Shown here: positions 31,339-58,583 of the stretch, one piece after another
How positions within the stretch are numbered: the stretch's first letter is position 1
Layout of the letters: each line of letters starts with the position of its first letter
DNA from: a bacterium
GTDB taxonomy: Bacteria; Fidelibacterota; Fidelibacteria; Fidelibacterales; Fidelibacteraceae
Length of the DNA stretch: 64,000 bases
Assembly (NCBI GenBank): GCA_963676395.1
Contig: OY781066.1
Location: forward strand, 1,632,001 to 1,696,000
Direction: 5' to 3'
Made by a program: the position numbers and the translations under genes
Notes under the pieces: model-generated
Database searches by the model: none
The model's input: the letters and a program-made list of their open reading frames with translations, nothing else
What the model was told of the DNA's origin: nothing

Positions 31339-32319
31339 TTAAAAAAGTCCTTCTAAAAATTCTTCGACCGTTACATTTAAAAAATAATTTTCTAAACCGA
31401 GCTCATTGAGTTTTGTTCTAAGGATATCTTTTTCGTGTGGAAGCCCCTTTAGAATATTTTCAAGTTCAGTTATATCTTTTATATTGAAGAAATCACCAAA
31501 GATCTTTGCTTTCTCGATTTTACCGCTGACGACCTGTAGGTCAATCTCAATATGTCCGCCTCCGGTTTTTATCCCTTTTTGGAAGTTGTATTGAGGAGAT
31601 GTGCCAAAATTCCAATCCCAGGTACCGTATTTTTCATCAACCAGTTTTTGAATAGCCGTGTTGTCTTCACTCGTCAACTCATAGAAAGTGGTGTCTTCGT
31701 ACATTGAACTGACATGCTTTATGATACGTTCTTCAAATTCTTGCAAGCTAATCGCTGTGGGAAGATGCTCTGAAATATTTGTTACTCTGGCTCTTACGGA
31801 TTTTACGGCTTTATCTTGAAATTTTAAGGGATTCACTTTTAAGGCTGAAGATAGGTCCGGCAGTTTTGAGCTGAAGAGAAGTGTACCGTGTTGTAAGATT
31901 TTATCTTTATAGAAATGTTTGGCGTTTCCTGAGAATTTCTTGCCTGAAATGGTTAGATCATTGCGGCCTTCAAATATGGCATTGACTCCCAGTTTTCTTA
32001 AAACATCAAGAATGGGTTGTGTATACTTACTAAAGTCGACTGTCTTACCGTTTTCTTCTTTCTTGATAAAGGAAAAATTTAAATTACCGGGGTCGTGGAA
32101 AACCGCACCACCTCCTGATAAGCGGCGTACTACGGTAATATTGTTTTCTTTTACATAATCCAGGTTAATCTCGGCCAATGAGTTTTGATGTTTACCTACA
32201 ATAATACTGGGAGCATTGATGTAGAGGTAAAAGCAATCCTGGGACTTATGCTTAAGTAGGTATTCTTCCGTAGCAATATTAAATGCCGGATTATGGGTTT
32301 TAGAGCGTATACATAACAT
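31339..32319 (-). CDS. lplA: Lipoate-protein ligase A
   Basis: RRLSGGGAVFHD, KFSGNA and HGTLL motifs. Confidence 0.95.
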   Translation of the reverse strand: MLCIRSKTHNPAFNIATEEYLLKHKSQDCFYLYINAPSIIVGKHQNSLAEINLDYVKENNITVVRRLSGGGAVFHDPGNLNFSFIKKEENGKTVDFSKYTQPILDVLRKLGVNAIFEGRNDLTISGKKFSGNAKHFYKDKILQHGTLLFSSKLPDLSSALKVNPLKFQDKAVKSVRARVTNISEHLPTAISLQEFEERIIKHVSSMYEDTTFYELTSEDNTAIQKLVDEKYGTWDWNFGTSPQYNFQKGIKTGGGHIEIDLQVVSGKIEKAKIFGDFFNIKDITELENILKGLPHEKDILRTKLNELGLENYFLNVTVEEFLEGLF

Positions 32320-32397
32320 GAGTATCTCCTGTTAAACTACAGAAGTATAGCGAATAATATTGATCCATCGCTATTTATTATCAACTATTACTGTATT

Positions 32398-34521
32398 TTA
32401 ACTTTTGTATGGTAAGGTTAACCAGAACGTTACACCTTCATCCTTTTTAGAATTAACTCCGATTTTTCCACCGTGAGCTTCAATAGCCATTTTGCAGAAA
32501 GTAAGGCCAATGCCTGAGGAATAACTATGTTCACTGTGCCCCGTATAAATTTGACTATAAATATTAAAAATGGATTCCAATTTGTCTTTCGGGATATACT
32601 CACCTGTATTGTATATCTTAATTCTGCAAACATTTCTTCCTTTATCCTTTATCAAATCAGCTGTGACTTGAATGAGGCCATTTTCATTTTTATATTTTGT
32701 GGCATTGGAAATGATATTGGTTAAAACGCGGATGATCAATTTTTCATCCACTTTGATTATAAGGTTTTTGGGCACTTTGTTTTCAAATTTAATATTGTTT
32801 AAATTAATTTGGAATTCATTTTGTTTGTATGCCTCTTTTACCAGTTCATCTAAAGGAGCTTCCTTTAAGTTGATCTCAAGACGGGTTTCTTCATATTTGT
32901 TAACATCAAGAATGTTTTGTATCAGATTTTGCATTTCTTTACCTGAATGGTAAATGAGTTCTCTGGTGTTTTCATTGATCTCAGGTAATTGCATAAATCC
33001 GATAATATTGCTTAAAGGATTTTTAAGATCATGTACCATCATTTTGGTGATTTCTTTTTTGAATCGATCCAGATCAATAAGTTTTTTATTTGCCTGATTC
33101 AATACATCCGCTTGATTTTGGATCATATTGTTTTGTAGTGTGACTTCACTGTTAATTTTTTGAAGTTCCTGTGTGCGCTTTTCAACTATTTCTTCAAGTT
33201 CATCATTATGCTTTTCAAGTTTGTTGCTGAGCTTTTCTACCTGAATATGCGCCAGAGATGAATTTTTTGAAATAATAAATGCCTGTACGAATAATAAACT
33301 GATCAGCCCGAAGGGTAAAAGATATGTTGATTGGATGATCTCAAGATAAAAAAGTATATCGTTGAGCATAGTAAATAGCAATAAAAAAGATCCTGCGAAC
33401 AGTAAACCTGAATTTGGTATTTTTTGAATAAGCGCGCGGAGGATCAGTATGAAAATCCCAACGATCATATAAACGGCTACTACCAGGATGGCATAAGAGG
33501 CATAAGTAAAGATTCTTGCGGGAAAAAGCAGGATGATAAGACATAATATAGCTGCCATACCTTGCACGCTTTTCTGAAACCAGTTTGGAATATTATCTGG
33601 TATCATGTTTTTAAGAAATGCCATCAAATAAATTCCAAATAAGGGTATTGAAATATATTCAATGCGAACGGCTAGTTCCCATGGCATGGATGTTGCAAAG
33701 TTGATCATTAATTTTTCACCGGTGGTACTCATGCGGAATAGAACAAATATGGCCATCATACTGAAGTACGCAGAAGATTTATCTGATCGGCGATAATGAT
33801 ATAAGGTCAGATGATAAAGAATAAGAAGCGTTATAATGCCAATCATTAAAAATTCAATACCGATTCTTATGTTTTTTATTTTACTCAGCGAGCTACCTTG
33901 AGCAAATAGAATAGGTTCGGTTGCACCACCGTTTCTATGATGGAAGTTTGATATTTGCAGTATGACTTCAATGCGATTGTTTTCGGCAAAAAAGATAAAA
34001 TCTTTTCTTTGCCAGGATGGTTTCATTTCTTTCTTACTTTTGCCCACTTCACCGGCTCCGCCAAAGAATTTTCCGTTGATCCACATTGCAAAAGCTGTTT
34101 CAAATTCTTTGATTTTAAAACCATAAATATCCGGTTTGTTAACATCTATGAAAAATCGATAGGTTCCATATCCCATAGGGCCGACTTTTTTACCGTCAAC
34201 TTCTAGACCATTCCATTCAAGGGGGATGTGTTGATACACTGGCTTTGGAAGTTTTTCTGGATTCTTGAAATCTTCGGGTGTAAGTAATTGGTTCCAGTAG
34301 AATTCAACATCACCCTCCAACGTAGAATATTTCTGGACTGAAAAATCTATATTACTGTAATCAAAAACACCCTTATGTCCTTTGATGTGAATATCATTTT
34401 TATTCGGGTGAAGCTGGAGCGTATAATTAACTGAATTAATGATTATACTAAGAAGAACTAAACCAATTACTAATAAAGTATGGTTTTGTTTAAGCCATTT
34501 AAGGAATTGATTATCTTGCAT
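32398..34521 (-). CDS. Sensor histidine kinase with 7TM-DISM-like input region
   Basis: Extracytoplasmic domain, ~7 TM helices, HDLKNPL H-box, NATKY and GIGLTFCK motifs. Confidence 0.9.
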   Translation of the reverse strand: MQDNQFLKWLKQNHTLLVIGLVLLSIIINSVNYTLQLHPNKNDIHIKGHKGVFDYSNIDFSVQKYSTLEGDVEFYWNQLLTPEDFKNPEKLPKPVYQHIPLEWNGLEVDGKKVGPMGYGTYRFFIDVNKPDIYGFKIKEFETAFAMWINGKFFGGAGEVGKSKKEMKPSWQRKDFIFFAENNRIEVILQISNFHHRNGGATEPILFAQGSSLSKIKNIRIGIEFLMIGIITLLILYHLTLYHYRRSDKSSAYFSMMAIFVLFRMSTTGEKLMINFATSMPWELAVRIEYISIPLFGIYLMAFLKNMIPDNIPNWFQKSVQGMAAILCLIILLFPARIFTYASYAILVVAVYMIVGIFILILRALIQKIPNSGLLFAGSFLLLFTMLNDILFYLEIIQSTYLLPFGLISLLFVQAFIISKNSSLAHIQVEKLSNKLEKHNDELEEIVEKRTQELQKINSEVTLQNNMIQNQADVLNQANKKLIDLDRFKKEITKMMVHDLKNPLSNIIGFMQLPEINENTRELIYHSGKEMQNLIQNILDVNKYEETRLEINLKEAPLDELVKEAYKQNEFQINLNNIKFENKVPKNLIIKVDEKLIIRVLTNIISNATKYKNENGLIQVTADLIKDKGRNVCRIKIYNTGEYIPKDKLESIFNIYSQIYTGHSEHSYSSGIGLTFCKMAIEAHGGKIGVNSKKDEGVTFWLTLPYKS

Positions 34522-34689: not shown

Positions 34690-35223
34690 TCAATTTTTAA
34701 TTCTACTGCTACTTGGCCTGGAACCGAACCACCAGGTGATAGCTGTTGTCAATAAGAACATGATCTGCGCAATGGTTTCACGGTACATGATAACCACTTC
34801 GGGAGCTGACAGGCTGTTTTCAATACCACCGGCAAAATGATGAAGGTTTATGGCGATAATGGTTCCGATCACCAGTAAGTATAGCGTGATGGTTGGACGC
34901 ATTAACCCACGAATTGCATCCACGATTTTAATCTTGCTGTTTTTGCTTTGTGTTTTTACGCTTTCTTTGAAAGCTTTGAGCTCTTCGAGATCTTTATCAA
35001 TAGTACCCTGAGTTTTGATACCTTCGATCTTTTTTTCTGCCAGCTCAAGTTCATGCCGGTACTTTAATTCGGTTTCGGCTTTTTTTAGTTCGGCCATTTT
35101 GAATTCATATTCTGATTTAATCTTGTGGTTTTTTCGCTCTTCACGCTTGGTTAGCCAGGAACCCAATAGTCCTATAACTGCACCAAAAGCTGATGAAGAC
35201 AATACTTGCATTAAAACGCCCAT
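34690..35223 (-). CDS. Membrane protein resembling 3-TM phage/GTA holin-like proteins
   Basis: N-terminal amphipathic segment, coiled coil, RP-TM and WWFGSR C-terminal motif. Confidence 0.55.
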   Translation of the reverse strand: MGVLMQVLSSSAFGAVIGLLGSWLTKREERKNHKIKSEYEFKMAELKKAETELKYRHELELAEKKIEGIKTQGTIDKDLEELKAFKESVKTQSKNSKIKIVDAIRGLMRPTITLYLLVIGTIIAINLHHFAGGIENSLSAPEVVIMYRETIAQIMFLLTTAITWWFGSRPSSSRIKN

Positions 35224-35455: not shown

Positions 35456-35887
35456 TTATTTAACAATTTCTTTAATAACGCTGGCGTTTATGATATTGTC
35501 AGCGATTGGGCAGCGTTTGGTAATTTTTTCAAGATAGGCTTCTTTTTCTGCATCTGTCATGTCTGCATCAATTTTAACAAAAGCGCGAATTTCAACAAAT
35601 CCTGCACGACCTTCTTCAGTTTTTCCAAGAAGGAAATCTTTATCAATGTCACCTTCAACATCAACTTCGATACCATTTACGGCGAGTCTTTCCTGGTTGG
35701 CGATAATACGTCCAATTGCACAAATACATCCAGGAAGTGAAGATAAGAAAATTTCCATGGGGTTAGGGCCTAAGCCTTCACCGCCCATTGCTACAGGTTG
35801 GTCAATGATGAATTCATGTGAACAGTTTACAACGGTTTTAAATCCTTTGCCAATTTTGGCGCCAAGTTTCATGGTAGTTACTGCCAT
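35456..35887 (-). CDS. OsmC-family protein
   Basis: IDQP..GG...GPNPME..L.SL.GC and RCPIADN motifs. Confidence 0.9.
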   Translation of the reverse strand: MAVTTMKLGAKIGKGFKTVVNCSHEFIIDQPVAMGGEGLGPNPMEIFLSSLPGCICAIGRIIANQERLAVNGIEVDVEGDIDKDFLLGKTEEGRAGFVEIRAFVKIDADMTDAEKEAYLEKITKRCPIADNIINASVIKEIVK

Positions 35888-36282: not shown

Positions 36283-36990
36283 TTAGATCAGTTTTTCACC
36301 GACCAATCCCACAACGAAACCCAGTATTGCGCCTAACGAGCTTAGATAATTTTTTTCTAATTTGCTTTCGGGGATAATATCCTGAATGAGTAAATATAGG
36401 ATACCACCAGCTGCAAATGTCATTAAGTATGAGGTCATGATGGGGTGATCACGAAGGAAAAAATGACCAATTAAGGCACCGGCGATCCCGGTAAAACTCA
36501 AGAAAAAGAAAATGATCAGGGTTTGTTTTGATGAAAATCCACTTTGAACCAGGTCTCTAAATGCATTAAATGCTTCGGGTAAATTCTGCAACCCAATAAA
36601 TATGGCCAGTAATGTCGCCATCTCATGATCCACGGCAAAAACAGAGCCTAGTGCAATGGATTCCGGAACAAAATCCATCATCATTGCCAGGAGCGTTGCG
36701 GTTTGTCCGCCCTTTTTTGATAGCTTTTGATCCAGAATCATAAATAAAATAGCACCTGTAAGAAAGGTGATGCATAAAGGTAGCCAGTTTAAAGTGCTTA
36801 AGCCTTTTGGTATTAATACAAGTGCCAATGCCGAAAGAATGATACCACCACCAAAAGACATAAAGGTATGTGTGATCTCATATTTTACCGGACTTTCTTG
36901 AATGTGATGATTGAAACTTCTTGCTAAAATACCGCCAATAAAGACAGTTATTCCTGCAAAACCCGAAAAAATAATTAATTCTGTTAACAT
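36283..36990 (-). CDS. ZIP-family divalent metal transporter
   Basis: Multi-TM; MDFVPESIALG and LQNLPEAF motifs. Confidence 0.88.
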   Translation of the reverse strand: MLTELIIFSGFAGITVFIGGILARSFNHHIQESPVKYEITHTFMSFGGGIILSALALVLIPKGLSTLNWLPLCITFLTGAILFMILDQKLSKKGGQTATLLAMMMDFVPESIALGSVFAVDHEMATLLAIFIGLQNLPEAFNAFRDLVQSGFSSKQTLIIFFFLSFTGIAGALIGHFFLRDHPIMTSYLMTFAAGGILYLLIQDIIPESKLEKNYLSSLGAILGFVVGLVGEKLI

Positions 36991-37011: not shown

Positions 37012-37293
37012 TTAACTACCGGCAAATGGTGTGCCTAAGATACCCAGCGCAAGTTCCATCCAGATCAAAATGAAGATCACAATGACCCCAATGATGACCG
37101 GGATGCGCCATTGGCTACTCTTTAATTTTATCGTCAGGAATTGCAGTAGCATCCCGAGCCCGAAGAGCATGAGGCCACCTATCATAAGATCAGCGATGCT
37201 CCAGCCTTCGCCCTCGCCGAATTGCGAGGCGATGTAGGGAATGAGCATGAGACCGTAAGAGCCGAGCAGTGTGAAAAAGGTTTTTTTCATCAT
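37012..37293 (-). CDS. Small 3-TM hypothetical membrane protein
   Basis: LIP.IA.QF...W..D and W.ELA.G..GTPFAGS pattern typical of a Bacteroidota membrane family. Confidence 0.75.
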   Translation of the reverse strand: MMKKTFFTLLGSYGLMLIPYIASQFGEGEGWSIADLMIGGLMLFGLGMLLQFLTIKLKSSQWRIPVIIGVIVIFILIWMELALGILGTPFAGS

Positions 37294-37355
37294 GAGAAAA
37301 ATTAGGGGATTTTAAAGGGGTTTACAATATAAAATAGCCTGACATGTTGAACGAA

Positions 37356-37780
37356 GGGACTCCGCAAGGAGAATATATCGCTTGTCCCGCTTATCAATAC
37401 GACTTCATGAGTTTAATAGGGACTCCGTAAGGAGTGCAAGAAGAATATATCGCTTGTCCCGCTTATCAATACGACTTCATGAGTTCAAAAGGGACTCCGC
37501 AAGTAGTGCAAGAAGAATATATCGCTTGTCCCGTTCATCAATACGACTTCATGAGTTCAAAAGGGACTCCGCTAGGAGTCCAAGAAGAATATACCGCTTG
37601 TCCAGCTCATCAATACAATCTCATGAGTTCACCAGAGACTTCGCAAGGAGTGCCAGAAGAATATATCGCTTGTCCCGCTTATCAATACGACTTCATGAGC
37701 TTAAAAGGGACTCCGTAAGGAGTCCAAGAAGAATATACCGCCTTATCACCCATACAAACGACCCCGTAGGGGTCGAAGAA
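37356..37780. repeat. Tandem array of ~6 REP-like 72-bp units, each with a GGACTCC-GNAA-GGAGT hairpin, ending in CGACCCC-GTA-GGGGTCG
   Basis: Unit starts at 37356 (shortened), 37419, 37491, 37563, 37635 and 37707. Confidence 0.92.
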
Positions 37781-38217
37781 TTAATGTATATATTTCTCCT
37801 CAAACTCAACATTAAATTCTCTTAATAATCGTTTCGTCTCCTCAAAAGGATTTTCCTTTTTATGATGTTCCTCCTGATTTTTAATATATTTAATCAAATC
37901 GGGTATCGCCTCAGGAGTATATGTAAAAGCACCATAGCCTTCATTCCATCCTCTAAAATATGGAAAAATTTTCTTTTCAAGAATAAATGAAGCACTGGAA
38001 AGCTTGATGTCTTTTACTAAAGAGGAAAGAGAAAGAGTTGGGTGAAGCGAAATTAGAATATGGATATGATTGTTGTATCCACCCACTCTATAAACAAAGC
38101 ATTTTTTGTTCATTAGGGTTTTTGAGATATACTCGAAAAGACGTTCCCTGTTATTTTTGCTTATGCTGTTTTCCCAATTTTTGGTTTGGAATACGATTTA
38201 CGGGTATAGGTTTTCAT
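37781..38217 (-). pseudogene. tnpA: IS200/REP-associated Y1 HUH transposase with a frameshifting deletion near the 5' end
   Basis: MKTYTR then out-of-frame IVFQTKN...; HIH (HUH), W.EGYGAFT and YIKNQEEHH motifs. Confidence 0.85.
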
Positions 38218-38229
38218 TTTCGTCCCTTA

Positions 38230-38300
38230 TTCTTCGACCCCTACGGGGTCGGGGTTTTACTTTGTAACGTATATATTCTTCTTGCACTCCTTGCGGAGTC
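38230..38300 (-). repeat. Inverted copy of the two-hairpin REP module upstream of tnpA
   Basis: TTCTTCGACCCCTACGGGGTCG...TTCTTGCACTCCTTGCGGAGTC. Confidence 0.88.
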
Positions 38301-38434
38301 GTGAATATAAGCAGTTTTTTTTATCAAAATCGTTGTTATTCAAAAAACTGTGATGAACATCACGGAAAAGTAGAAATTTAATTTCCGAATGGATTAAAAA
38401 TGGAGATTCCATAGAAGCCTAAGAAGAACAAATT

Positions 38435-38560
38435 GCTTGTCCCGTTCATCAATACGACTTCATGAGTTCAAAAGGGACTCCGCAAGGAGTCCAAGAAGAA
38501 TATACCGCCTTATCACCCATACAAACGACCCCGTAGGGGTCGAAGAATTATTGGATATAT
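38435..38560 (+). repeat. Direct-repeat copy of the last 72-bp unit plus terminal hairpin
   Basis: Matches ~37668-37793 at an offset of 767 nt. Confidence 0.88.
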
Positions 38561-38608
38561 TTTACTTCAACTTTAACCGTCATCTCAGTTTTTAATTTTA
38601 CCACGGGA

Positions 38609-38773
38609 TCAGACCTTCCCCGACTTGTTGTCTAAAGCGACCCAAAAACAGCTGCTGTTCTTTAGAATGCGATAGTGTGTTTCCGGAAGCGGCGGATTCG
38701 ACCAACCGACAAAAAAACCTGTCAACTGCTCGTTGTTGATCTTTGTGATATCATTGATGTATTCCAGTGCCAT
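38609..38773 (-). pseudogene. 5' fragment (54 codons) of a GNAT-family acetyltransferase
   Basis: MALEYINDITKINNEQLTGFFVGWSNPPLPETHYRILKNS...GKV*; GFFVGW.NPP..ETH is the N-terminus of a GNAT family; the C-terminal half is absent. Confidence 0.65.
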
Positions 38774-42462: not shown

Positions 42463-42477
42463 GATTAATACGAAGAA

Positions 42478-46950: not shown

Positions 46951-46972
46951 TTTTAAAACCTTACTTAATTAA

Positions 46973-48961: not shown

Positions 48962-48962
48962 G

Positions 48963-49418: not shown

Positions 49419-49584
49419 ATACATCCTTTTCGTTTTCAATTCGAGCAGAATATAGTGCGGCGAATTTGAAACAACAAGAATAAAAAGTAATAATAAGAAG
49501 TAAAGGGGAATAATAGGGAGTAATTATGCTAAAATAACATGGAAAAGGGGATAAATGGGGGTGTGAGGGTGCGAGGGAACGAGA

Positions 49585-49821: not shown

Positions 49822-50034
49822 TTAACTTTTAACTTCGACCGCTTTGGGGTCGGGACCGTATTTGTTTTCCTTCGCTTCACCCTCGGTTACATTCAGGACA
49901 AAGATCCATATGCTTCCTATAACCGGAATCAGTTCGAGGAGTAACATCCAACCACTTTTACCAATGTCATGAAGCCGTCTGACAGCAAGGGCTAAAAATG
50001 GAATGATCATAATGATTAGATATTTGTTATCCAT
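49822..50034 (-). pseudogene. DUF805-family membrane protein, N-terminally truncated
   Basis: LAVRRLHDIGKSGW and NKYGPDPK motifs; only 70 aa, lacks the usual N-terminal GRA.R.EYW half. Confidence 0.7.
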
Positions 50035-50047: not shown

Positions 50048-50596
50048 TTATTTACCTTCCCAGCAAGGAGAAACAGTGACATATTCATTTAGTTGAGCCC
50101 ATCTGACAAAGTCATAGGTCTTGAATGAATCAACCCAACACTCTTCCTCACCCTCCGGGACATGGAAATATATGGTGCAGCCAAGACTGCTATCTTCGAG
50201 TGACTGCCGTAATTTATATTGCTCCATATTTTCAAGCCATAGCTGTTGATGAAGCGTATCTTTTATAGTCACCAATGCCGGAAAAACCGTGATAACCTGT
50301 GTATAATGACTAAGATAACCACTGGTGTTGATAACGTAAGGTTTTGCGTTAAGGCTACTTATTACATATTGCAAACTATCAGACCCTAATGCTGATCTAA
50401 AAGTTAATCCATGAATATTTTCCACGTCGTGATCAAATAAATTGATAAAATCAAATACCCGGTTGATGGGATAATCACCTCTGATCCCGACAAGTACATC
50501 CGTCGGGACATATTCGGGTTCGTCGTGATCGATCGGATCAACACATGCGCCTAGCATTAAAAGAGAAATTGCCATGAAGAATTTTAAGAATTTCAT
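50048..50596 (-). CDS. Hypothetical lipoprotein
   Basis: Lipobox LGAC; 182-aa ORF. Confidence 0.75.
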   Translation of the reverse strand: MKFLKFFMAISLLMLGACVDPIDHDEPEYVPTDVLVGIRGDYPINRVFDFINLFDHDVENIHGLTFRSALGSDSLQYVISSLNAKPYVINTSGYLSHYTQVITVFPALVTIKDTLHQQLWLENMEQYKLRQSLEDSSLGCTIYFHVPEGEEECWVDSFKTYDFVRWAQLNEYVTVSPCWEGK

Positions 50597-50731
50597 GTAA
50601 AGCCTTTTATTATTTTAATTTATAAAAAGTATTGTAAATATGTTAGAATGACAAGTGGTATTTCTTGCAATATGCTGAGAATTAGAGAAATCTGCGCAAT
50701 CTGTGGGTAGTGTCGTTTCAATTACTCTAAA

Positions 50732-50845
50732 TCATGAATAGATCTCTCCCACAGGCGCCGTGCGCTTGATCCGGCGTTTTTTTATTGCTTTCATTAGCGG
50801 AAATAGTAAATCAGTCTGAGGAGAGGGAAGTTTGATCATTTCCAT
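50732..50845 (-). pseudogene. Nitroreductase 5' fragment, copy 2, internally deleted
   Basis: MEMIKLPSPQTDLLFPLMKAIKKRRIKRTAP resembles the N-terminus of 42641-43243. Confidence 0.8.
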
Positions 50846-50983: not shown

Positions 50984-51943
50984 TCATGATGAAAATAATT
51001 GTTTATAATGCTTTCTGACAGTGTTTTGATATTTCTGCTTCCCGAGGTCTGATAAAAATGATTTGTCGATAAATTTTAACATCTCTTCTTCTTTTTCCCG
51101 ACTTTGTTCTATGATCGTATCTAAGATATTATCTTTAATATTCCAGCGTTTTCCCAATTCAATGAAATGCTTTATGGAGTATTCATAAGGTGTTGTTAAT
51201 AAATGATCCTTTGTTCGTTCCATTTCTTTAAAAAGGTTCATGGCTATTTGGGTGTCATCAATATGAAGTTTTGTGTTCATTAGATCATAAGAAGGGGAAA
51301 GGATCATATCGCCGTTTTGTGATTCAAGAAGTGAAATATTTTTCAAGTGGACATCACCATTTCCGGTCAAAAAATTGAAGATCAGTATTTTTATAAATTT
51401 AATTTTATCAAGTGGATTCAGGTTATGACCAACGTCTTCATACGTTGCGGAATTATACTTGTTAATTCCAGAATTGCTGATACTTAGTATAGACGTAAAA
51501 TCCTCCTGGCGCAACGGGTCGCCATTATTATCTCGGTCAAATCTGCGGGTTAGATACACCGGCTCGCCATCGGCAAAATACATGAAAGCACATTTTGCAG
51601 TATCAATATTGAATATTTGGTCAGCCATTTGCATCGTCAAGTGTTCATTGGCGGGAGAATCTAAATACAGATCCCATCTTGAATCGAGGAAAGGTTTAAC
51701 GATATACATCGATTCCAAATCAATATTCGGCATAAGTAATTTATTTTTATTTCTTCCTATAAACCCTTTTGCCTGAACGCCGGAAAGGCTAAATCCAGTC
51801 GGTCGGCCGATGTTTCGTTTTCTAATATCATTCCAATTAAAATCAAGCGTCACCGGAACTTTTGATCTGTCAAAAAGCTTGCTTTCACATGCTGAACAAA
51901 AGCCATCTACATTGTTTTTTAAACATCCATGACAATATGACAT
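50984..51943 (-). CDS. HipA-family kinase toxin (HipT-like)
   Basis: SLSGVQAK, PANEHLTM, YLTRRFDR, GNGDVHLKNISL and SPSYDL motifs. Confidence 0.92.
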   Translation of the reverse strand: MSYCHGCLKNNVDGFCSACESKLFDRSKVPVTLDFNWNDIRKRNIGRPTGFSLSGVQAKGFIGRNKNKLLMPNIDLESMYIVKPFLDSRWDLYLDSPANEHLTMQMADQIFNIDTAKCAFMYFADGEPVYLTRRFDRDNNGDPLRQEDFTSILSISNSGINKYNSATYEDVGHNLNPLDKIKFIKILIFNFLTGNGDVHLKNISLLESQNGDMILSPSYDLMNTKLHIDDTQIAMNLFKEMERTKDHLLTTPYEYSIKHFIELGKRWNIKDNILDTIIEQSREKEEEMLKFIDKSFLSDLGKQKYQNTVRKHYKQLFSS

Positions 51944-52266
51944 TAGTTTTCATCTTTCTTTATTGTAATTGCCCCTATTGTATCATGACCACACGTATTA
52001 ATCAATAAATTCCAATCATCATGAATATCAATTCCCAAGGCTTTACATTGCATTTGCCTGTTATAGCCCTCTGAAAGCATTGATTGAAAAAAAGGAAAAA
52101 GCTGTTTAGCATGATATGTTTTTTGAGATTTTGGTAAATTGATTGAAATAGGATAAAGTTCATTATTTCTTATAAAATCATCATCGTATTCAAAGTGATA
52201 ACCAGTTTCATCCCGCCATAATAAGCCGGCAAGATACTTGTCTTTATAAATGACTTTGGCTCTCAT
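51943..52266 (-). CDS. HipA N-terminal (Couple_hipA / HipS-like) protein
   Basis: AGLL....GYHFEY, ISINLP, LFPFFQSMLSEG and DTIGAITI motifs. Confidence 0.9.
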   Translation of the reverse strand: MRAKVIYKDKYLAGLLWRDETGYHFEYDDDFIRNNELYPISINLPKSQKTYHAKQLFPFFQSMLSEGYNRQMQCKALGIDIHDDWNLLINTCGHDTIGAITIKKDEN

Positions 52267-52471
52267 TATGCTTTCTTAACTCCAATTTGATCTCCAGATC
52301 CAGGTAATAGAATATTTCGTTAAGCGTTTCAAAAGAAGGATTTGCCTTCCCATTTTCGATAAGGGATAATGTTACAACCGTCAATCCGGTATAAGCGGCA
52401 AGTTCTTTTTGTGAGATGGATAAGACCTTCCGCCTTTCTCTAATCTTCTTTCCTAATTCTCGTTTGTTCAT
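52244..52471 (-). CDS. XRE-family HTH antitoxin/regulator (HipB-like)
   Basis: IRERRK.L.ISQKELA...IENGKANPS. Confidence 0.92.
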   Translation of the reverse strand: MNKRELGKKIRERRKVLSISQKELAAYTGLTVVTLSLIENGKANPSFETLNEIFYYLDLEIKLELRKHNESQSHL

Positions 52472-52477: not shown

Positions 52478-52684
52478 AGTTAAATTATAATTAAACTATT
52501 ATTACGAATATAATTGTTTGGGTGCTCTATGTCAATAATATTTAATTATAATTAAAATATTATATCAAACAACACTGTTTTGGTCTAAATGTTAATAATA
52601 TTAAAATATAATTAAACTATTATCGTAATAATGATGTTTGCCTGTAATATTGTGTGGAATATTAAAATATAATTAAAGTATTAT
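52478..52684. promoter_or_regulatory. Four near-palindromic operator-like sites with 60-61 bp period
   Basis: Cores A(T/A)TATAATTAAA centred at ~52488, 52549, 52609 and 52670. Confidence 0.7.
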
Positions 52685-52722
52685 AACATATTATATTCCC
52701 CATCCCAGGAATGCACGCACCG

Positions 52723-52904
52723 GCTCTTGGCGCGCTCGGTGGCCTCGTAAGTAATGCCGCAGGCCGCCCAGAGCAGATTACTTAGATCCTGCTCGCCGAC
52801 CGCCTCAGCGGCAAAACGTCGTTTTGTCCGGCGTTGGTTGATCGCTTGCATGAGGGGGAAGGTGAGGTTGGTTTGGGGCGGGGCAGAGACATAATATTTT
52901 TTAT
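52723..52904 (-). pseudogene. Nitroreductase 5' fragment, copy 3 (~60 codons, start lost, frameshifted)
   Basis: High nucleotide similarity to ~43060-43243, e.g. AGATCCTGCTC.CCGACCGCCTCAGCGGCAAAACG. Confidence 0.88.
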
Positions 52905-52986: not shown

Positions 52987-55900
52987 TTATTCCTCTCTTA
53001 TAAACTTCAATTCTGGTAAAACTATTCTAAACTCTTTATCCAATTTATCTTTATGCCAAAATATAATATAATTAACAAGAGCTTCTGAAAGCTTATAACC
53101 TTTGTTTTTGTAATCCTCGATTTTCTTTTTAAAGCTTCTTGAAAATTTTAGCACGCAATTTCCATCTTTATCTGAACAGCCATCATCATTAACTATAAGT
53201 TCATCACCACCTTTAAGCGTGGAAATATATTTCTGTCTTTTAATAAAATAATCTAACCAAATGTCTTTATGTGATAAATGTAATAGCAGAAGATTTGATG
53301 TTTCGTATGGGGTATCATCATACTTGCGTTCAATATTATTACAAGAATAATTGTCTAAATAATTCCCATTTAAATGAATGGTTAGATTTTCTTTTGCTCT
53401 AGTCATTGCGACATATAATTCTCTTTTGATAGCGTCAGTACGTGGAGAAATATTTCTTAGCATCAAAAACACATTATCAAATTCTTTACCCTTTGCTTTA
53501 TGGTTTGTTGAAACTAATATTGTTTCTCTAATGGTACTAATAAAATCCTCAAGCTTTGATTCTTTTACAAAGACCTCAAAATCGGATTTGAATTTCTTTT
53601 CCGGATTACTAAGTTCAAATGCTTTAATCAGATGAATACATATTTCAATTTTTGAGCTTTCTTTATAGTTATTCCATAGTTTTCTCTTAGCTGATTTCCA
53701 GTCCTCTGGGGATATCGTGTATTTGTCTTCCGAGAAATTAAGTTGATTAATAAAATATCTTACTTCAAGTATGTTGTGTAAACTAAACCAATCGTTGCTT
53801 TGGATTAATTTTGCTTTTATTCCTTTATTAAGTAATAGTCCCGTTATTTGTAAGGCTTCGGAATTCTCATGAGTTAATATGCACGTGCTCCCATTTAGGT
53901 CAGAGTTAAGTATGTCCATAATTACCGGTTTCGATAGATTTGGACTGGAATATTTTATTATCTTAAGTTTCCCGTTTTCACTTGAGTGAGGAATGATCGG
54001 ATTTGTTTTAAGTCGTTTTTGGATTCCCGTAGCAAACTGATTGGTAAATTCAACAAGGTTGGCCCTACTGCGATAATTTTCTATTAGCTCAATCTTTTTA
54101 GCATTTTGTTCAACAATGAATCTTTCAAGATATTCAGAACTAGCTCCCCTAAATTCATAAATATTTTGATCATCATCGCCAACAGCAATAACTCTCATTC
54201 CTTCATTTTTATCCATTAATATTTTAATTAACTCAAATTCATGCTTGTCCATGTCTTGGGCTTCATCAATTACCAAAACGGTTTTTGTAATTCGGTTTGA
54301 TTCAATATCTCCAGATCTGATTTTCTCAATCGTGTTTTTTATTATTGTTTCTGATTTCTCGATTGAACCGACCTTTCCTAGTAGATCAAAACAATATGAA
54401 TGAAAGGTTTTTATTTCAATATATGCTGCAGCATTTCCTATTAAAGTAAATAATCGTTTCTTGAACTCTGAGGCTGCTGCTCGTGAAAAAGTTACCATCA
54501 ATAATTGTTCGTGTTTAACATCTTCCATTAATAATAATGAAGCAAGCTTATGTACCAAAACTCTGGTTTTACCACTTCCGGGACCGGCTGTTACAGCAAT
54601 ATATGGAGAACTATTATCATTGATAATGCTGAGTTGTCTAGGGGATAACTCACCGAATAGTTGGCTGAATTTTTCAGGGGTGATATTTTGCTTTATTTCA
54701 TTTTGTCTGCTGCCCTTAAAATATTTATTTAGAAATGAAGAATAATTAAGTTGAAAATAATCTTCGACAAATTGTAGTGCCGATTTGTAATCCTGAATCA
54801 TTTTTTTTGCATATTCACCTACAATATGAATTTGCTGAACTCTCTGCTCATAGAATTGATTTAGTTTTTTATAATCTTCTGCCTTATATCTAACTTTATT
54901 GTCTTTTTCAAGTCGTTCAATTGTGAGTTTATTATATATGACTAAAAATCCACCTTCAATTTTTATAGCATCAATTCTTGAAAGATAGAAGAGGGCATCT
55001 TCAACATCCGAAATCGAAATTTGGAGTTTAAAAAGAGAGTTACTATTCTCATATTGTTGCTTTAATTCATGAACGGAAAACTCAACGTATAGGTATTCTT
55101 TGTTAGCATCCGATCTAGAAAGGTTTTGACTGCTTTTCCCATATAGATAATCGGTTATAAAGCGAGCTAAATCATGTCTTCTTTTTAATCTATTTCTTAA
55201 TTCATGTACCGGATAATTTGATACAACAGAAAGGTGGTTATTAGAAGTGTTACTTTGCTTTCTCTTAAGCCAGTTCTTAATCACCCAAAAGTTTATGATC
55301 GTTTTTAGCTTGTTAGGTGAAATATCTGTGCAGCCATTTTCTTCTGCCAATTCATTTAGCTCTTTAATGTGGAAAGATTTTTCCTCTTCATCAAATTGAG
55401 TTAATAAGAATTTCTCTATTTTGCTAATTGAATTAACAATTCTAAGTGATCGGTTTTTATTTTCTCCTTGCTTAATAAAAGCTGTCAAATCTTTTGTATC
55501 TGCTAATATTTTTTCTTCTCGTAATAAATTTATTGCATTGATCACATCTTCTTTTACAATGCCTAAATGGTCTGATATGTAGTCTACTCTCGATTCTGCC
55601 ACTTCGTCAGTAGCTTGTTTTCTGCTTTTACTGGAAAATAGTTTTTTTATAATTCTGACAGCATCTTGTCTTTGTTTGGTGTTGAACTTTTCCGACACAT
55701 TAATTTTGTCAATAGCCTCTTGAGCATTTTTTGTTAGAATACTATTAGCAAATATTCTAGGTGTATTTTGTCCGCGTTTTAGGTAACCTGACTCTTCTAA
55801 GGCTGAAATTGCAGTTGTCACTCTTGTCTCGATCTCAACGACATTATCATCCCATCCGGCTTTCCTTGCAATTTCCAGGGCTGAATTTGAAACACTTGAC

Positions 55901-57789
55901 CTGAATTTAGTTATTTCCTTAATAGCAACCCATATCTGCTGGATCTCCTTAATATTTAACTTAGTCTGGTTAAGTAATATGAAGTGCTTGCTAAGATCTT
56001 CCTCATTAAAAAGTACATAACAATCAGCTGATATTTTTTCATCCCTTCCAGCTCTGCCAGCTTCTTGGACATAGTTTTCAAGAGAATCAGATAATTCGTA
56101 ATGAATCACCATACCGACATCTTTTTTATCTACTCCCATACCAAATGCTGAAGTAGCAACCATGATATCAACATCGCCTCTAATAAATGCATCCTGATTT
56201 TCTGATTTCTCCTGCTTATCCATTTTACCATGATAGGGTTTTGCAGAATATCCATCCTTAGAAAGTTTTTCAGCAATTTGATAAGCTCTTTTAGTACGAG
56301 AAACATAAATAATGGTTGGACAGTTTTTCCCGTCAATGAGATTGCGTAGACTCTCATACTTATCTACTTCCGTAGCCTTAGGGATTACCTTGTAATGTAG
56401 ATTAGTACGGGAGGCATTTGAGCTAAAGATTTCTAGTTCTAAGTCTAATTTATCTTTAAAATAATCCTTAATATCTTGAATAACATTTTGCTTGGCAGTT
56501 GCTGTAAAACAAGAAACCGGAATCGGGTTTTTAAGTTTTTTCTTTTCTTGTAATGATTTTATGAAATCACCTATGTATAGATAATCAACTCTAAAATCTT
56601 GACCCCAAGCAGAAAAACAATGTGCCTCATCAATAATGAAACGTACAACATTTCTACCAAGTAATAAGCGCTCGATTGATCTTGATCTTAAAGATTCTGG
56701 TGAAATATAGAGAAGAGATGTTGTGCCATTTTCGACTCTTTCAAAAGATTTTCCTCTTTCGATGGGATCCAGCAAACCGTTTATTGTAACTGCTTCGGTG
56801 ATATTTGCTTTTTCTAAATTATCTACCTGATCTTTCATCAAAGATTGCAATGGAGATATGACAACAGTTAAGCCTTTAACATATTCACCACTCATTAACG
56901 CAGGGACTTGAAAGGCTAAAGATTTTCCACCGCCGGTTGGAAATACCGCAATTAAAGATTTATTTTTTATCGCTGCCTCAACGGCTTCTTTTTGTAGTTC
57001 TTTGCCGCCAAAACTTCTGTATGAAGAATATCCGAAGTAATTTTTTAATGCCATATCTGCATTAAGAAAACTGTTGCAATATCGGCATCCCCTCATGCAG
57101 GGATTATTTCTTAATAAATACATTATCCGTTCAATATCAGGATAATTCTTGATCACCCAGGGAGGTGTAATAGAGTATCGGCTATCAGTATTTATTAAGG
57201 CTAGAGAATAAGCTAATTCAACAGGATATTCTTTTATTGTTTTTCTTAATTGGAAATTTTGACAAATTTTATCAAAGAATTTATTCGTTATTAGATTTTC
57301 AATATTTCGGTTACCAGGAAAATATTCTACAACATCAAAGAAAGCTGAAAATTCCATTTTATCCTTGAGTAATGTATAATATATTTGTTTTAAGTCGTTG
57401 TCAAGTTTGTGAAATGCTTCGACCTCATCGCGGAAGAGAGCTCTTGCTTTTATAGCATCATTCAGAGGATTGTTTAGTTCTTCTGTTTGTAGTTTGTCGT
57501 CTTTTAAAAGTGCATGATATGGCTTTTTAGGAAATAGTAGTGGAGATAAAAATAAAGTATCAATGGCTTTTATTTTGGATACATTTATATCTGTTGCTTT
57601 TGCAATAAATTTCAAGTCATGATTAATGATGTTGTGCCCACAAATAAATTCATTTTGGTTAATAAATGCAAGAAGTACTGACATGGATTTAGAGTGGAAT
57701 TTCATTCCATCATTAGATACTCCACCTATATCAAGTATTTGTTGGCTTTTGGCTTCTACTTCGGTATCTATGAAGGCAATTTTTTTCAT
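52987..57789 (-). CDS. Large fusion protein: DEDD-like exonuclease domain + RecQ-family helicase + UvrD-like helicase
   Basis: IDTE/GHNI..HD; FPTGGGKS, DEAHC, ATSAFGMGVD, QEAGRAGRD; AGPGSGKT, DEAQD, VGDDDQNIY.FRGA, ENYRS, KGKEFD, YVAMTRA. Confidence 0.92.
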   Translation of the reverse strand: MKKIAFIDTEVEAKSQQILDIGGVSNDGMKFHSKSMSVLLAFINQNEFICGHNIINHDLKFIAKATDINVSKIKAIDTLFLSPLLFPKKPYHALLKDDKLQTEELNNPLNDAIKARALFRDEVEAFHKLDNDLKQIYYTLLKDKMEFSAFFDVVEYFPGNRNIENLITNKFFDKICQNFQLRKTIKEYPVELAYSLALINTDSRYSITPPWVIKNYPDIERIMYLLRNNPCMRGCRYCNSFLNADMALKNYFGYSSYRSFGGKELQKEAVEAAIKNKSLIAVFPTGGGKSLAFQVPALMSGEYVKGLTVVISPLQSLMKDQVDNLEKANITEAVTINGLLDPIERGKSFERVENGTTSLLYISPESLRSRSIERLLLGRNVVRFIIDEAHCFSAWGQDFRVDYLYIGDFIKSLQEKKKLKNPIPVSCFTATAKQNVIQDIKDYFKDKLDLELEIFSSNASRTNLHYKVIPKATEVDKYESLRNLIDGKNCPTIIYVSRTKRAYQIAEKLSKDGYSAKPYHGKMDKQEKSENQDAFIRGDVDIMVATSAFGMGVDKKDVGMVIHYELSDSLENYVQEAGRAGRDEKISADCYVLFNEEDLSKHFILLNQTKLNIKEIQQIWVAIKEITKFRSSVSNSALEIARKAGWDDNVVEIETRVTTAISALEESGYLKRGQNTPRIFANSILTKNAQEAIDKINVSEKFNTKQRQDAVRIIKKLFSSKSRKQATDEVAESRVDYISDHLGIVKEDVINAINLLREEKILADTKDLTAFIKQGENKNRSLRIVNSISKIEKFLLTQFDEEEKSFHIKELNELAEENGCTDISPNKLKTIINFWVIKNWLKRKQSNTSNNHLSVVSNYPVHELRNRLKRRHDLARFITDYLYGKSSQNLSRSDANKEYLYVEFSVHELKQQYENSNSLFKLQISISDVEDALFYLSRIDAIKIEGGFLVIYNKLTIERLEKDNKVRYKAEDYKKLNQFYEQRVQQIHIVGEYAKKMIQDYKSALQFVEDYFQLNYSSFLNKYFKGSRQNEIKQNITPEKFSQLFGELSPRQLSIINDNSSPYIAVTAGPGSGKTRVLVHKLASLLLMEDVKHEQLLMVTFSRAAASEFKKRLFTLIGNAAAYIEIKTFHSYCFDLLGKVGSIEKSETIIKNTIEKIRSGDIESNRITKTVLVIDEAQDMDKHEFELIKILMDKNEGMRVIAVGDDDQNIYEFRGASSEYLERFIVEQNAKKIELIENYRSRANLVEFTNQFATGIQKRLKTNPIIPHSSENGKLKIIKYSSPNLSKPVIMDILNSDLNGSTCILTHENSEALQITGLLLNKGIKAKLIQSNDWFSLHNILEVRYFINQLNFSEDKYTISPEDWKSAKRKLWNNYKESSKIEICIHLIKAFELSNPEKKFKSDFEVFVKESKLEDFISTIRETILVSTNHKAKGKEFDNVFLMLRNISPRTDAIKRELYVAMTRAKENLTIHLNGNYLDNYSCNNIERKYDDTPYETSNLLLLHLSHKDIWLDYFIKRQKYISTLKGGDELIVNDDGCSDKDGNCVLKFSRSFKKKIEDYKNKGYKLSEALVNYIIFWHKDKLDKEFRIVLPELKFIREE

Positions 57790-58082
57790 TAATTATTCGA
57801 TTCTTTTTATAAATATTCGATTTGCCTAGTGTGTGACTAAATATGTGTTTGTACTTTAGATTACCACTTCCCTTATAATTGTTATATAAATTACTGTAAA
57901 TATGTATTAACCGCAATTGATTATTTGCGCTTGAAAGAAGAGTATAGATTTAACTTAAATGGCTATCATTATATTAGTGAGTAGTGTTTAATGAGTTAGA
58001 ATTATTTTTAATATTTTTCATTAGAGTATGAAAGTTCATCGGTATTCGGTAATTGCCAAGAAATACTTGCCTGGCATTCGTG

Positions 58083-58583
58083 TTAAGATTTAATATGACG
58101 CTTTAATTTTTTAATGGCCCACTCATAATGCGAGCTGGTACTGGAAATACAGTAGGCGCCCAAGGAGGTGGATCCGGTCCATGAAAAGTGTTTTTTTACG
58201 AATAATTCTTCATCACTGAAAGAATCGATAAGCGCTATCACATCGGCATGACTTTGTGTGAGCTTTTTGATAGATTCATCCAAAGGTGTATGCTGATGTT
58301 TTTTCCATATTTCCACATTCATATCGGGATAGGTTTTCCAATTGTAAGGCTCAGGCAAGAAAGGTGAAACTGTCCCGCTTGTATTGTTTTTTACCCACTT
58401 GATCTGCAACAGGTGCCATTCGTAAAGATGAATAAGCACATCGCGCAGATTGCGATCTCTATCTTCAAAAGCAAAGCTTGCATTTTGCAATTCGGGACCC
58501 ATTGCATCGATGAGAGCAAAGAGCTTGTTAAAATTGTTTTCGGCGGCTGTGAGTAGTTCGGATTTGGATTTTGGGCGGGGCAT
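58083..58583 (-). CDS. ClbS/DfsB-family four-helix-bundle protein (DUF1706-like)
   Basis: MPRPKSK.ELL, RDVLIHLYEWH and SSHYEWA.KKLK motifs. Confidence 0.85.
   Translation of the reverse strand: MPRPKSKSELLTAAENNFNKLFALIDAMGPELQNASFAFEDRDRNLRDVLIHLYEWHLLQIKWVKNNTSGTVSPFLPEPYNWKTYPDMNVEIWKKHQHTPLDESIKKLTQSHADVIALIDSFSDEELFVKKHFSWTGSTSLGAYCISSTSSHYEWAIKKLKRHIKS

Follow-up and report, generated by a model that had tools for sequence, protein, structure and literature searches.

How could 27.9 kb of accessory DNA come to lie between two housekeeping genes, fmt and rsmB, when no integrase lies with it? The question is raised by a window of 64,000 nucleotides, the whole stretch of DNA analyzed here, which spans positions 1,632,001–1,696,000 of the single contig (C1) of genome G000 (2,335,625 nt; 38.1% GC). 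The fmt–rsmB interval, referred to below as the island, occupies 1,663,130–1,691,076 of the genome; features of the window are given in window positions, and those elsewhere in G000 in genome coordinates. A reading made from the window's letters alone, the sequence-only reading, had described the interval as a co-oriented, repeat-delimited and cassette-like array without an integrase, possibly built up by a transposase or by recombination between repeats. We compared G000, the genome under study, with its relatives G001–G033 (34 genomes in all) and consider, with moderate confidence, that the interval is a chromosomal gene-turnover hotspot without an integrase of its own, in which DNA is exchanged mainly by host recombination.

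Gene turnover between fmt and rsmB

The left side of the island is bordered by def (29,541–30,062) and by the left core flank fmt (30,215–31,129; Pfam Formyl_trans_N/C), both on the plus strand, and the right core flank rsmB (59,077–60,381; Pfam Methyltr_RsmB-F and NusB), also on the plus strand, begins 27,947 nt after fmt. Both genes are widely retained, with fmt matches at E ≤ 1e-30 for 28 of 31 relatives and rsmB matches for 31 of 31. The space between them is filled by 23 minus-strand genes or fragments together with two 5′ stubs of a nitroreductase gene (NTR). In 16 genomes (G010, G014, G016 and G019–G031) the fmt and rsmB matches lie only 20–250 nt apart, measured from match to match, whereas the gap is 2,248 nt in G003, 4,857 nt in G032, 11,049 nt in G002 and 27,950 nt in G000. 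The genes are adjacent in 16 of the 20 genomes that have both intact on one contig, a count that includes G020 with a partial rsmB only, and adjacency is thus the rule in this sample at the level of the phylum. In G004, G006, G015 and G017 the two are on separate contigs, and in the others one gene was not found or is at a contig end; G012, for instance, yielded rsmB but not fmt, and G005 was left out of the count because its fmt carries stops and its rsmB is in pieces. The rsmB of G031 (L017) likewise matches in five pieces, and the breaks in G005 and G031 are probably assembly errors. Where the two genes are separated, fmt is at least 67% identical to that of G000, and where they are adjacent within the genus the identity is at most 64%.

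In the subclade around G000 the cargo differs between relatives, with a few shared modules that keep their order. G032 carries lplA, an ODP-family protein, OsmC and hyp154 (hyp denotes a hypothetical protein); G006 carries lplA, hyp86, a repetitive extragenic palindromic (REP)-associated tyrosine transposase (RAYT) gene, GH13, a glyoxalase, an MFS protein, REP elements of the family that we call REP2, and NTR; and G002 carries an NTR stub, a split hipB–hipA module, ORF6N, AlaDH, CMD, GNAT/TacA, an MjaI-type endonuclease with a methylase, and a truncated YhcG. The shorter cargoes consist of an ODP-family protein in G003, a glyoxalase and a hydrolase in G011, and a PDZ protease, MscL and CMD in G009. 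The split hipB–hipA module, which is also present in G000, resembles the tripartite HipBST type of toxin-antitoxin system and is called HipBST here. In a tree of fmt, G002 and G011 are close (clade support 97/92), yet they have different genes beside fmt, and turnover has occurred within the well-supported G002/G011/G015/G017 clade; the backbone is unresolved at 7 of 12 inner branches and leaves the order of G000, G006 and G032 unsettled. The lplA gene was found in only 3 of the 22 genus genomes (G000, G006 and G032), each time adjoining fmt, and is an accessory gene of the genus, while lplA and HipBST are present in all four combinations among the genomes. The earlier suggestion of a gain and loss hotspot that lacks an integrase is thus borne out by 16 genomes with adjacent genes and by different cargo of 2.2, 4.9, 11.0 and 27.9 kb in G003, G032, G002 and G000.

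No recombinase was found to accompany this variation. Tyrosine recombinases (PF00589) have five matches in the genome (at 710529, 713258, 1394417, 2003875 and 2013371), none of them within the island, and no open reading frame (ORF) of the island matched PF00589 in a Pfam scan. Within the window ARAGORN detected no tRNA and Rfam only a 5′-cut tRNA at 1–54, and the longest direct repeat from boundary to boundary, sought as an att-like flank, was 34 nt at 74%, which is at chance level. Among 127 stop-to-stop frames of the junctions, the sole relevant Pfam match was the first of the NTR stubs (stub A), and this match was weak (E = 0.019). In a metagenome run (X2) the stretch was present without differences, and three joints were recorded; we take these to be spurious because their shorter side measures only 21–23 nt in AT-rich DNA.

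GC content and orientation of the cargo

The sequence-only reading had remarked on abrupt switches between GC-rich and AT-rich genes, and the per-gene values support it: they range within the island from 24.5% (an OmpA-like gene) to 56.7% (NTR, at the 99.8th percentile), compared with a mean of 38.6% and a standard deviation of 4.2 for the genes of the genome. The block formed by the genes for PDC-S06, the OmpA-like protein and hyp182a has 24.5–27.0% GC, at or below the 1st percentile, and directly neighbors NTR. The values for other island genes are 49.7% for GH13, 46.1% for the hydrolase and 32.4% for the RecQ–UvrD helicase.

Every one of the 23 genes supported by Pfam or homology, from lplA to the ClbS-like gene, lies on the minus strand, as had been read from the letters. 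The plus-strand ORFs in the island are contained within minus-strand genes or overlie a REP array, and the one at 37,382–37,825 matched no Pfam family. Once one spurious ORF over the REP array had been dropped, the island ranked 9th of 363 same-strand runs by span, 12th by gene count, and 2nd of 180 among runs on the lagging strand. Over the whole genome, two neighboring genes are on one strand with a probability of p = 0.80, and co-orientation is unexceptional for this genome. From the GC skew, the origin lies near 1.18 Mb and the terminus near 0.02 Mb, which makes the plus strand the leading one in the window and places the island genes on the lagging strand. The dnaA gene (972396–972878) is located ~200 kb from the cumulative GC-skew minimum, which leaves the replication direction at the window unaffected. 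Replichore bias was rejected as the cause of the co-orientation on the grounds of this lagging-strand position, and that part of the earlier argument stands. The rejection carries two caveats, the distance of dnaA from the skew minimum and the minus-rich surroundings: in the 150 kb on each side, the plus strand has only 108 of the 265 genes.

The same orientation recurs in the relatives. In seven of them ~33 of 41 ORFs of at least 70 aa point towards fmt (towards fmt/with fmt: G002 9/4, G017 7/4, G006 7/0, G032 4/0, G003 1/0, G011 2/0 and G009 3/0), a count that omits two G006 ORFs, one over a REP cluster and one antisense to the end of NTR, as well as small unsupported ORFs of G032, and that is drawn from relatives which are kin and not independent.

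Repeats and gene stubs at the junctions

The island has 17 junctions of at least 70 nt, 5 before and 12 after 37.3 kb. A repeat family or a gene stub is found at 9 of the latter 12 and at none of the former 5 (9/17 overall), in agreement with the claim that such features appear from about 37,300 onward. Furthermore, REP1, its exact hairpins and an element that we call UE, all described below, are confined to the island, and in this the repeat density is indeed unlike that of the genome at large. However, repeat searches, nhmmer and motif scans revealed no single family that recurs at all junctions, and the label 'cassette-like' is therefore loose: repeats do occupy many junctions, but none is shared by every one of them.

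We derived block edges from the synteny of G000 with G006, G032 and G002, and these fall at 31,123, 32,320, 35,456, 35,903, 37,033, 40,649, 41,722, 42,180, 42,439, 50,756, 52,571 and 59,086. Six of the 12 (41,722, 42,180, 42,439, 50,756, 52,571 and 59,086) have a repeat or stub no more than 200 nt away. This does not amount to enrichment, because with repeats at 9 of the 17 junctions ~6 of 12 edges would be expected, and the test is a small one. The proposal that gain and loss breakpoints fall at the hairpins was thus not sustained (6/12 edges compared with 9/17 junctions), while that of recombination between repeats survives in part, with hyp152 bracketed by REP2 and HipBST bracketed by NTR stubs on its side and the overall distribution of edges against it.

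REP2 consists of hairpins with a 5-bp stem (GCTCCNNNGGAGC or GTCCCNNNGGGAC) and a CTACAAAGATATCG flank. Of its copies in the genome, 15 surround an intact Y1 gene and the other 4 belong to the island (41.6 and 42.5 kb). The copy at 41,629–41,685, comprising the hairpin GCTCCGTAGGAGC and its flank, is 91% identical to G006 L010 7577–7630 and is the left arm of a 47-nt direct repeat (89%) that brackets hyp152 (41,722–42,180, minus strand; a 152-aa hypothetical protein with 53% identity in G032), whereas G006 has one copy and no hyp152 between GH13 and NTR. Three further hairpins, at 42,478–42,490, 42,524–42,536 and 42,576–42,588, share the region 42,356–42,620 with a 14-nt tandem array (42,375–42,465; ~6.5 copies by TRF), and this region is kept in G006 (L010 7564–7785). 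The intact Y1 gene belongs to a second REP/RAYT unit, at 199400–201000 of the genome, in which the gene (200267–200611; open frame of 192 aa) has REP2 inverted on two sides. An intact tnpA in trans, the existence of which the sequence-only reading had left to a search, is thus present among 15 REP2 hairpins.

The intact NTR gene (42,641–43,243, minus strand; Pfam Nitroreductase) has two partial copies further to the right, both on the minus strand. Stub A (52,720–52,881) matches aa 9–62 at 85% in tblastn and forms a 168-nt direct repeat at 83%, and stub B (50,744–50,842) matches aa 3–38 at 61% and is fused to a partial palindromic element (50,713–50,749). The stubs, in direct orientation, bracket HipBST, and 7.5 kb more cargo lies between stub B and intact NTR. 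G002 has an equivalent stub next to hipT; at that place G017 retains only a small part of the region upstream of NTR, and it has an NTR 5′ stub at the far end of the contig. Both the stub of G002 and the one at the G017 contig end break off near codon 26, after which the same sequence follows, and across G000, G002 and G017 the stubs have three different break points. With regard to the truncated gene ends that had been claimed, the two NTR 5′ stubs and a DUF805 C-terminal half were substantiated. The 54-codon ORF at 38,612–38,773 (minus strand), earlier read as a GNAT 5′ stub, was not confirmed as one: it has no Pfam match, no paralogue in the genome and no longer homologue.

UE is ~90 nt long, and its three copies in the genome all lie in the island, in direct orientation on the minus strand and each before an unrelated module: UE1 at 47,630–47,714 (nhmmer E = 1e-19), UE2 at 50,611–50,696 (E = 3.2e-16; 70% over 135 nt to G017 L004 5226–5359) and UE3 at 57,873–57,946 (E = 3.2e-10). 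The proteins behind them show 23–26% identity in forced alignment and are unrelated, and one more UE lies in the rsmB-side island of G017. Its invariant core (TTG, 20 nt, TAnnTTT) has the spacing of a promoter. In a genome-wide count over 708 regions, the Bacteroidota-type promoter pattern TTTG-N18-22-TAnnTTT occurred upstream of genes 44 times in sense and 22 times in antisense orientation, and 8 times within genes; a sigma-70-like pattern was enriched as well (18, 4 and 0), and the counts favor neither promoter type. We rejected UE as a widespread cassette site: a scan of genome contigs gave one match, apparently the G017 copy, and the 19 pattern matches in metagenomes are taken as chance because nhmmer extended none of them past the searched core.

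Other repeats accompany particular junctions. Upstream of hipB, at 52,480–52,690, there are ~2.4–4 copies of a 61-nt AT-rich repeat, kept in G017, which are probably operators. The right boundary of the island (58,838–59,067) holds a palindromic element (58,838–58,926), of the form GTCATCTCGRCCG...GGAGAGA, and a ~70-nt hairpin (~58,980–59,067), GAACAAGGA...TCCTTGTTC, upstream of rsmB, and this boundary region is kept beside rsmB in G017. The palindromic element is found genome-wide, with a blastn match at 754958–755050, and its family (GTCATCTCGACCGA...GGAGAGATC) is represented in the island by the full copy at the boundary and by the partial copy at stub B; in the form GTCATYTCGACCGR...GGAGAGATC there are tens of dispersed copies, for example at 805492, 1100834, 1117589, 1849031–1849392 and 2223291–2226039. 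The ~70-nt hairpin element, (A)TTGAATATTGAACAAGGATTAACGAT...GTTCCTTGTTCG, also precedes fmt in G002 and G003 and has one more copy in G000 (12865–12951), with further coordinates at L001 1177–1208 and 1709–1738 and at L002 3527–3570, and it matches no Rfam family at gathering score. Among the relatives, a tandem duplication of ~120 nt precedes rsmB in G032 (L015 14200–14700), and G006 has runs of the heptamers TCAACTG/TCAATTG at several junctions (L010 2214–2272, 6257–6287 and 7873–7936). No repeat is common to the island and the rAID-like region of the genome at 705–750 kb.

The RAYT-type gene and its hairpins

The only mobility gene that had been noted in the island, a Y1 HUH transposase gene, was said to be decayed, and comparison with G006 confirmed this. 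It is a RAYT-type pseudogene at 37,781–38,224 on the minus strand (PF01797, 67.9 bits) with a 5′ frameshift, an ATG in a different frame, and one in-frame TAA where the intact positional orthologue in G006, of 147 aa, has Q10. The TAA is followed by 138 open codons, and the HIH motif and the C-terminal YIKNQ tyrosine are retained. Y114 of the G006 protein aligns with the tyrosine of a 'YIENQ' stretch in PDB chain 2fyx_A, and we take the aligned YIENQ/YIKNQ tyrosine to be the catalytic one. Matches to IS200/IS605 TnpA structures were weak only (E = 0.006–0.1), and the score against the NCBIfam IS200 model, 49.6 bits, was under its 55-bit cut-off. REP/RAYT systems are reportedly the subject of work by Bertels and Rainey in 2011.

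Hairpins lie on both sides of this gene. The REP1 array (37,354–37,780) is made of a 72-nt unit, each with a GGGACTCCGYAAGGAGT hairpin, which is repeated ~5.2–6 times at 37,354–37,741 (TRF: period 72, 5.2 copies, 87% matches), and it ends in the REP1b hairpin CGACCCCGTAGGGGTCG at 37,759–37,775, 5 nt beyond the RAYT stop codon. At the opposite end, 38,229–38,596 contains inverted REP1b and REP1a (38,229–38,300) and then a direct duplicate, in which 38,422–38,596 repeats 37,655–37,829 at 86%. The inverted pairs are well matched, 37,759–37,781 and 38,229–38,251 being 100% complementary and 37,709–37,737 and 38,272–38,300 93%. All eight REP1a and all three REP1b copies of the 2.34-Mb genome (at most 2 mismatches) fall at 37,354–38,550, and the four exact RACCCCGNNGGGGTYGAA hairpins of G000 are all within the island. 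A REP1b-like satellite cluster at 47,885–48,030 comprises 2–3 hairpins of an AACCCC...GGGGTT subtype in alternating orientation (nhmmer E = 6.7e-8 and 8.2e-4, with one weak match at 0.42; exact pattern at 47,896–47,913) and overlaps a 63-codon ORF (47,889–48,080).

The G006 locus is laid out as in G000: one hairpin stands at the stop codon, inverted copies lie upstream, and 151 nt are directly duplicated (92%). The hairpin stems differ by paired changes, CGACCCC/GGGGTCG in G000 versus CAACCCC/GGGGTTG in G006. The pattern RACCCCGNNGGGGTYGAA has 87 matches, spread over 15 of the 22 genomes of the genus (reversed control, 0), and a Watson–Crick outer pair (G..C or A..T) is kept in 84 of the 87 hairpins, which points to covariation of the stem. 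G002 has 27 exact copies and several close Y1 paralogues, compared with 4 copies in G000, and close homologues of the island Y1 gene occur in at least three other gene contexts among the relatives. The order hyp93–RAYT–GH13 is common to G000 and G006, and in G006 it directly follows fmt–lplA. On these sequence grounds the island Y1 gene is a RAYT-type resident with co-evolved hairpins that has kept its place since G000 and G006 separated, and because G006 has an intact positional orthologue in the same layout we see it as a resident and probably not as the driver. Elsewhere in the genome, a Y1_Tnp gene at 1828194–1828619 (83.3 bits) has weak REP1b-like hairpins on both sides (1827889–1827921 and 1828689–1828724), and a Y1_Tnp match at 1871407–1871649 covers part of the profile only.

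Cargo genes of the island

From left to right, and all on the minus strand, the cargo begins with lplA, a lipoate-protein ligase gene (31,339–32,319; TIGR00545, 422.7 bits). It is followed by a 7TMR-DISM histidine kinase (32,398–34,521; Pfam) and the 177-aa hyp177 (34,690–35,223), both specific to G000 and absent from the G006 and G032 intervals. Then come an OsmC-like protein (35,456–35,887; Pfam OsmC), with 78% identity to the copy in the G032 interval, a ZIP transporter (36,283–36,990; Pfam Zip) and the 93-aa hyp93 (37,012–37,293), which is 71% identical in G006 and there directly adjoins lplA. Beyond the RAYT locus lie a GH13 alpha-amylase-family enzyme (38,810–40,732; Pfam), with 84% identity in G006, where its gene has 51% GC, and the 164-aa hyp164 (40,882–41,376), an ORF for which scans of Pfam, PADLOC and NCBIfam returned no family.

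On the far side of NTR, the AT-rich three-gene block (43,518–47,521) encodes an AAA_13 ATPase (43,518–45,899), an OmpA/MotB-like protein (45,928–46,950) and the 182-aa hyp182a (46,973–47,521). In PADLOC the ATPase is PDC-S06 (991 bits) and the OmpA/MotB-like protein gives a weak ZorB-like match, and the three genes together may make up a multi-gene version of a candidate defence system for which PADLOC has a single model name. Next are an alpha/beta hydrolase (48,113–48,961; Pfam/NCBIfam) and an HTH_17 excisionase-family DNA-binding protein (48,963–49,439; TIGR01764, 28.2 bits, just below the 28.8 cut-off). In a metagenome run (X1) that contains only a small share of the stretch, a contig of 1547 nt matched 48,041–49,458, that is, the hydrolase and HTH_17 genes, with 66 differences (~95% identity). 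This contig departs from G000 at its 48,003–48,041 end, next to the REP cluster at 47,885–48,030, which hints that the pair may move as one unit and would fit a recent transfer of this module.

The DUF805 C-terminal fragment (49,822–50,034; positions 54–111 of the 111 in the Pfam profile) and the 182-aa hyp182b (50,048–50,596), whose N-terminus was read as lipoprotein-like from the translation, precede the HipBST module. Here a HipA homologue is split into a gene for a 107-aa N-terminal domain (51,943–52,266; Couple_hipA) and one for a 319-aa kinase (50,984–51,943; HipA_C), with HipB in front (52,244–52,471; HTH_3), all assigned by Pfam. The module shows 72–80% identity and an identical split in G002 and G017, where it adjoins fmt. 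A double helicase of 1600 aa with RecQ-like and UvrD-like parts (52,987–57,789; Pfam DEAD/Helicase_C and UvrD) gives DpdF- and PsyrT-like PADLOC matches in the former part and GajB-like matches in the latter, and has ~240 N-terminal residues without a family match. The last gene (58,083–58,583) encodes a DUF1706 (DinB-like/ClbS-like) protein (189.9 bits in Pfam). By these family assignments, the rsmB-proximal half of the island is rich in predicted defence genes, namely PDC-S06, the RecQ–UvrD helicase and HipBST.

Proposed host recombination and its alternatives

In a hotspot served by the host, recombination would act on the conserved flanks (def–fmt and rsmB) and on the internal direct repeats (REP2, the NTR 5′ stubs and UE), while illegitimate joins and deletions would leave gene stubs behind. 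The arrangement stub–cargo–intact gene in direct orientation could be the product of a single-crossover (Campbell-type) insertion of a circle that carried a 5′ gene piece. RAYT/REP units would then be passengers that decorate some junctions, and the minus-strand bias might arise from insulation, as island transcription would never enter rsmB and read-through from fmt would be antisense to the cargo. Several observations weigh against this explanation. The block edges are not enriched at repeats (6/12 edges compared with 9/17 junctions), and recombination at the flanks alone predicts no orientation bias, yet 23 genes in G000 and ~33 of 41 ORFs in the relatives face fmt. The relatives are only ~70% identical, and recent exchange is therefore invisible. 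Moreover, the shared modules have diverged like the core (lplA 77–79% and HipBST 72–80%, compared with 69–74% for fmt), so that old vertical inheritance with differential loss fits these modules equally well.

This last point leads to the possibility, in our view rather unlikely, that the history was mostly vertical: the ancestor of the subclade would have had a large island, lineage-specific deletions would account for most of the differences, and accretion would be overstated. Consistent with this, the modules common to G006, G032, G002 and G017 keep their order and strand as well as a core-like divergence, the REP2 junction on the downstream side of NTR and the palindromic element next to rsmB recur from species to species, and the fmt tree, in leaving G000, G006 and G032 unresolved, is compatible with a single origin of lplA. 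It does not sit well with the blocks of extreme GC found only in G000 (24.5–27% and 56.7%, compared with 38.6%, standard deviation 4.2), with lplA in only 3 of 22 genus genomes, or with the hydrolase and HTH_17 module that run X1 recovered at ~95% identity in other flanks, and the four lplA/HipBST combinations require extra gains, losses or exchange.

A second alternative, to which we assign a low probability, is that REP/RAYT activity drove the accretion, with neighboring genes mobilized or captured through cleavage and joining of single strands by Y1/RAYT at REP hairpins, which would give a fixed orientation on the lagging strand. All island genes do lie on that strand; three REP families meet in the island, two of which are otherwise confined to their own RAYT locus; an intact RAYT flanked by REP2 is available in trans (200267–200611); hyp152 is bracketed by REP2 copies; and the end of the X1 module adjoins the REP cluster at 47,885–48,030. 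However, REPs are present at only 5 of the 17 junctions of at least 70 nt and at none before 37.3 kb, the edges are unenriched at repeats, and the island RAYT is broken and has kept its position since the G006 split. There is also little sign of activity in G000, with 4 exact REP1b hairpins compared with 27 in G002. In the portions of the surveyed literature at hand, RAYTs are described as replicating REP/REPIN elements, and gene capture by them is not reported. The sequence-only reading's suggestion of REP/Y1 activity as the driver is thus disfavored, given an island RAYT that is broken in G000 and resident at the same position in G006, REPs at only 5 junctions, and unenriched edges.

It is likewise improbable that the distal half of the island (43.5–58.6 kb) is what remains, after decay and loss of the integrase, of one or more integrative elements or defence islands that were acquired whole. 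The excisionase-family HTH_17 gene, even at a score below cut-off (28.2 versus 28.8 bits for TIGR01764), would suit such an origin, as would the defence cargo (PDC-S06, RecQ–UvrD helicase and HipBST), the multi-gene blocks of uniformly deviant GC, and the ORF6N domain and restriction-modification pair at the same site in G002. The blocks differ strongly in GC, though, which indicates several arrivals and not one, and no integrase remnant, tRNA or flanking att-like repeat (best, 34 nt at 74%) was found.

More speculatively, the interval could be an orientation-locked capture array, in which modules are threaded at UE, NTR 5′ or REP sites by a trans-acting HUH/RAYT-type or other enzyme on the lagging-strand template. 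We think this very unlikely; if true, it would explain both the cross-species strand bias and the repeated 5′ stubs. We give hardly any credence to a new integrase-free or trans-served cassette system that would use UE and/or the NTR 5′ region as sites for an enzyme encoded elsewhere, such as the recombinase of the rAID-like array: UE occurs three times in direct orientation, only in the island and before unrelated modules, and once in the rsmB-side island of G017, NTR stubs have three different break points (G000, G002 and G017) and the orientation bias extends across species, but UE lies at three junctions only, has a core with promoter spacing (TTG, 20 nt, TAnnTTT) and has no copy beyond the lineage in scans of genome contigs and metagenomes, while the rAID-like region (705–750 kb) and the island have no repeat in common and no recombinase adjoins the island array. 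An integron or rAID-like reading was rejected, there being no recombinase in the island and no repeats in common with the 705–750 kb region.

Our preferred reading is a hotspot served mainly by host recombination. Its significance lies in a small genome of 2.3 Mb, from a little-studied lineage, that concentrates foreign and defence genes in one slot between translation-related housekeeping genes without an integrase. The REP2 brackets, the NTR stubs and UE are candidates for repeat-mediated exchange of modules, and the island also yields candidate defence genes. In addition, low-copy REP/RAYT units are documented here outside the proteobacteria, and the intact and broken orthologues of G006 and G000 form a pair that suits tests of RAYT function.

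Comparison with known systems

Genomic islands borne by tRNA genes and integrases differ from the fmt–rsmB island, which has no integrase, no tRNA or att target and no flanking direct repeats. Arrays of the rAID-1 type share with it defence-type genes, truncated gene pieces and intergenic repeats, but the island is without an adjacent recombinase. Like sedentary chromosomal integrons, it is a long co-oriented array of unrelated genes with a flavor of defence, toxin-antitoxin and small-protein functions and with repeats at many junctions. Unlike them, it has no IntI or attI, several multi-gene modules are placed behind their own UE, and the array sits between housekeeping genes; of the repeat families detected, none recurs at all junctions.

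A further comparison is with REP/RAYT systems, in which, according to the accessible part of Nunvar et al. (2010, PMC2817692), the rayt gene is flanked by inverted REPs. To the extent of that account, the island unit is alike in having an IS200/IS605-related Y1 HUH gene with inverted REP hairpins at both ends. It also has a tandem array like a bacterial interspersed mosaic element, a single-copy RAYT subtype, positional conservation between G000 and G006, and covarying stems. It differs in that its cognate REPs are local in G000, with 4–11 copies, whereas classical REPs are dispersed in more than 100 copies, and in that the G000 gene is a pseudogene and the host lies outside the proteobacteria.

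Chromosomal hotspots of horizontal gene transfer (HGT) that have no recognizable mobile elements have been described, with recombination between homologous flanks as the proposed route of diversification (Oliveira et al. 2017, Nat Commun, PMC5635113). Like these, the fmt–rsmB interval is a variable space between core genes with rapid turnover of unrelated accessory and defence genes and no integrase. It departs from them in that we compared species that are ~70% identical and not strains, and in that the cargo is almost fully co-oriented and holds REP/RAYT units and repeated stubs. Rather than revealing a new class of mobile system, the fmt–rsmB interval is an HGT hotspot that harbors a low-copy REP/RAYT unit, both of known kinds.

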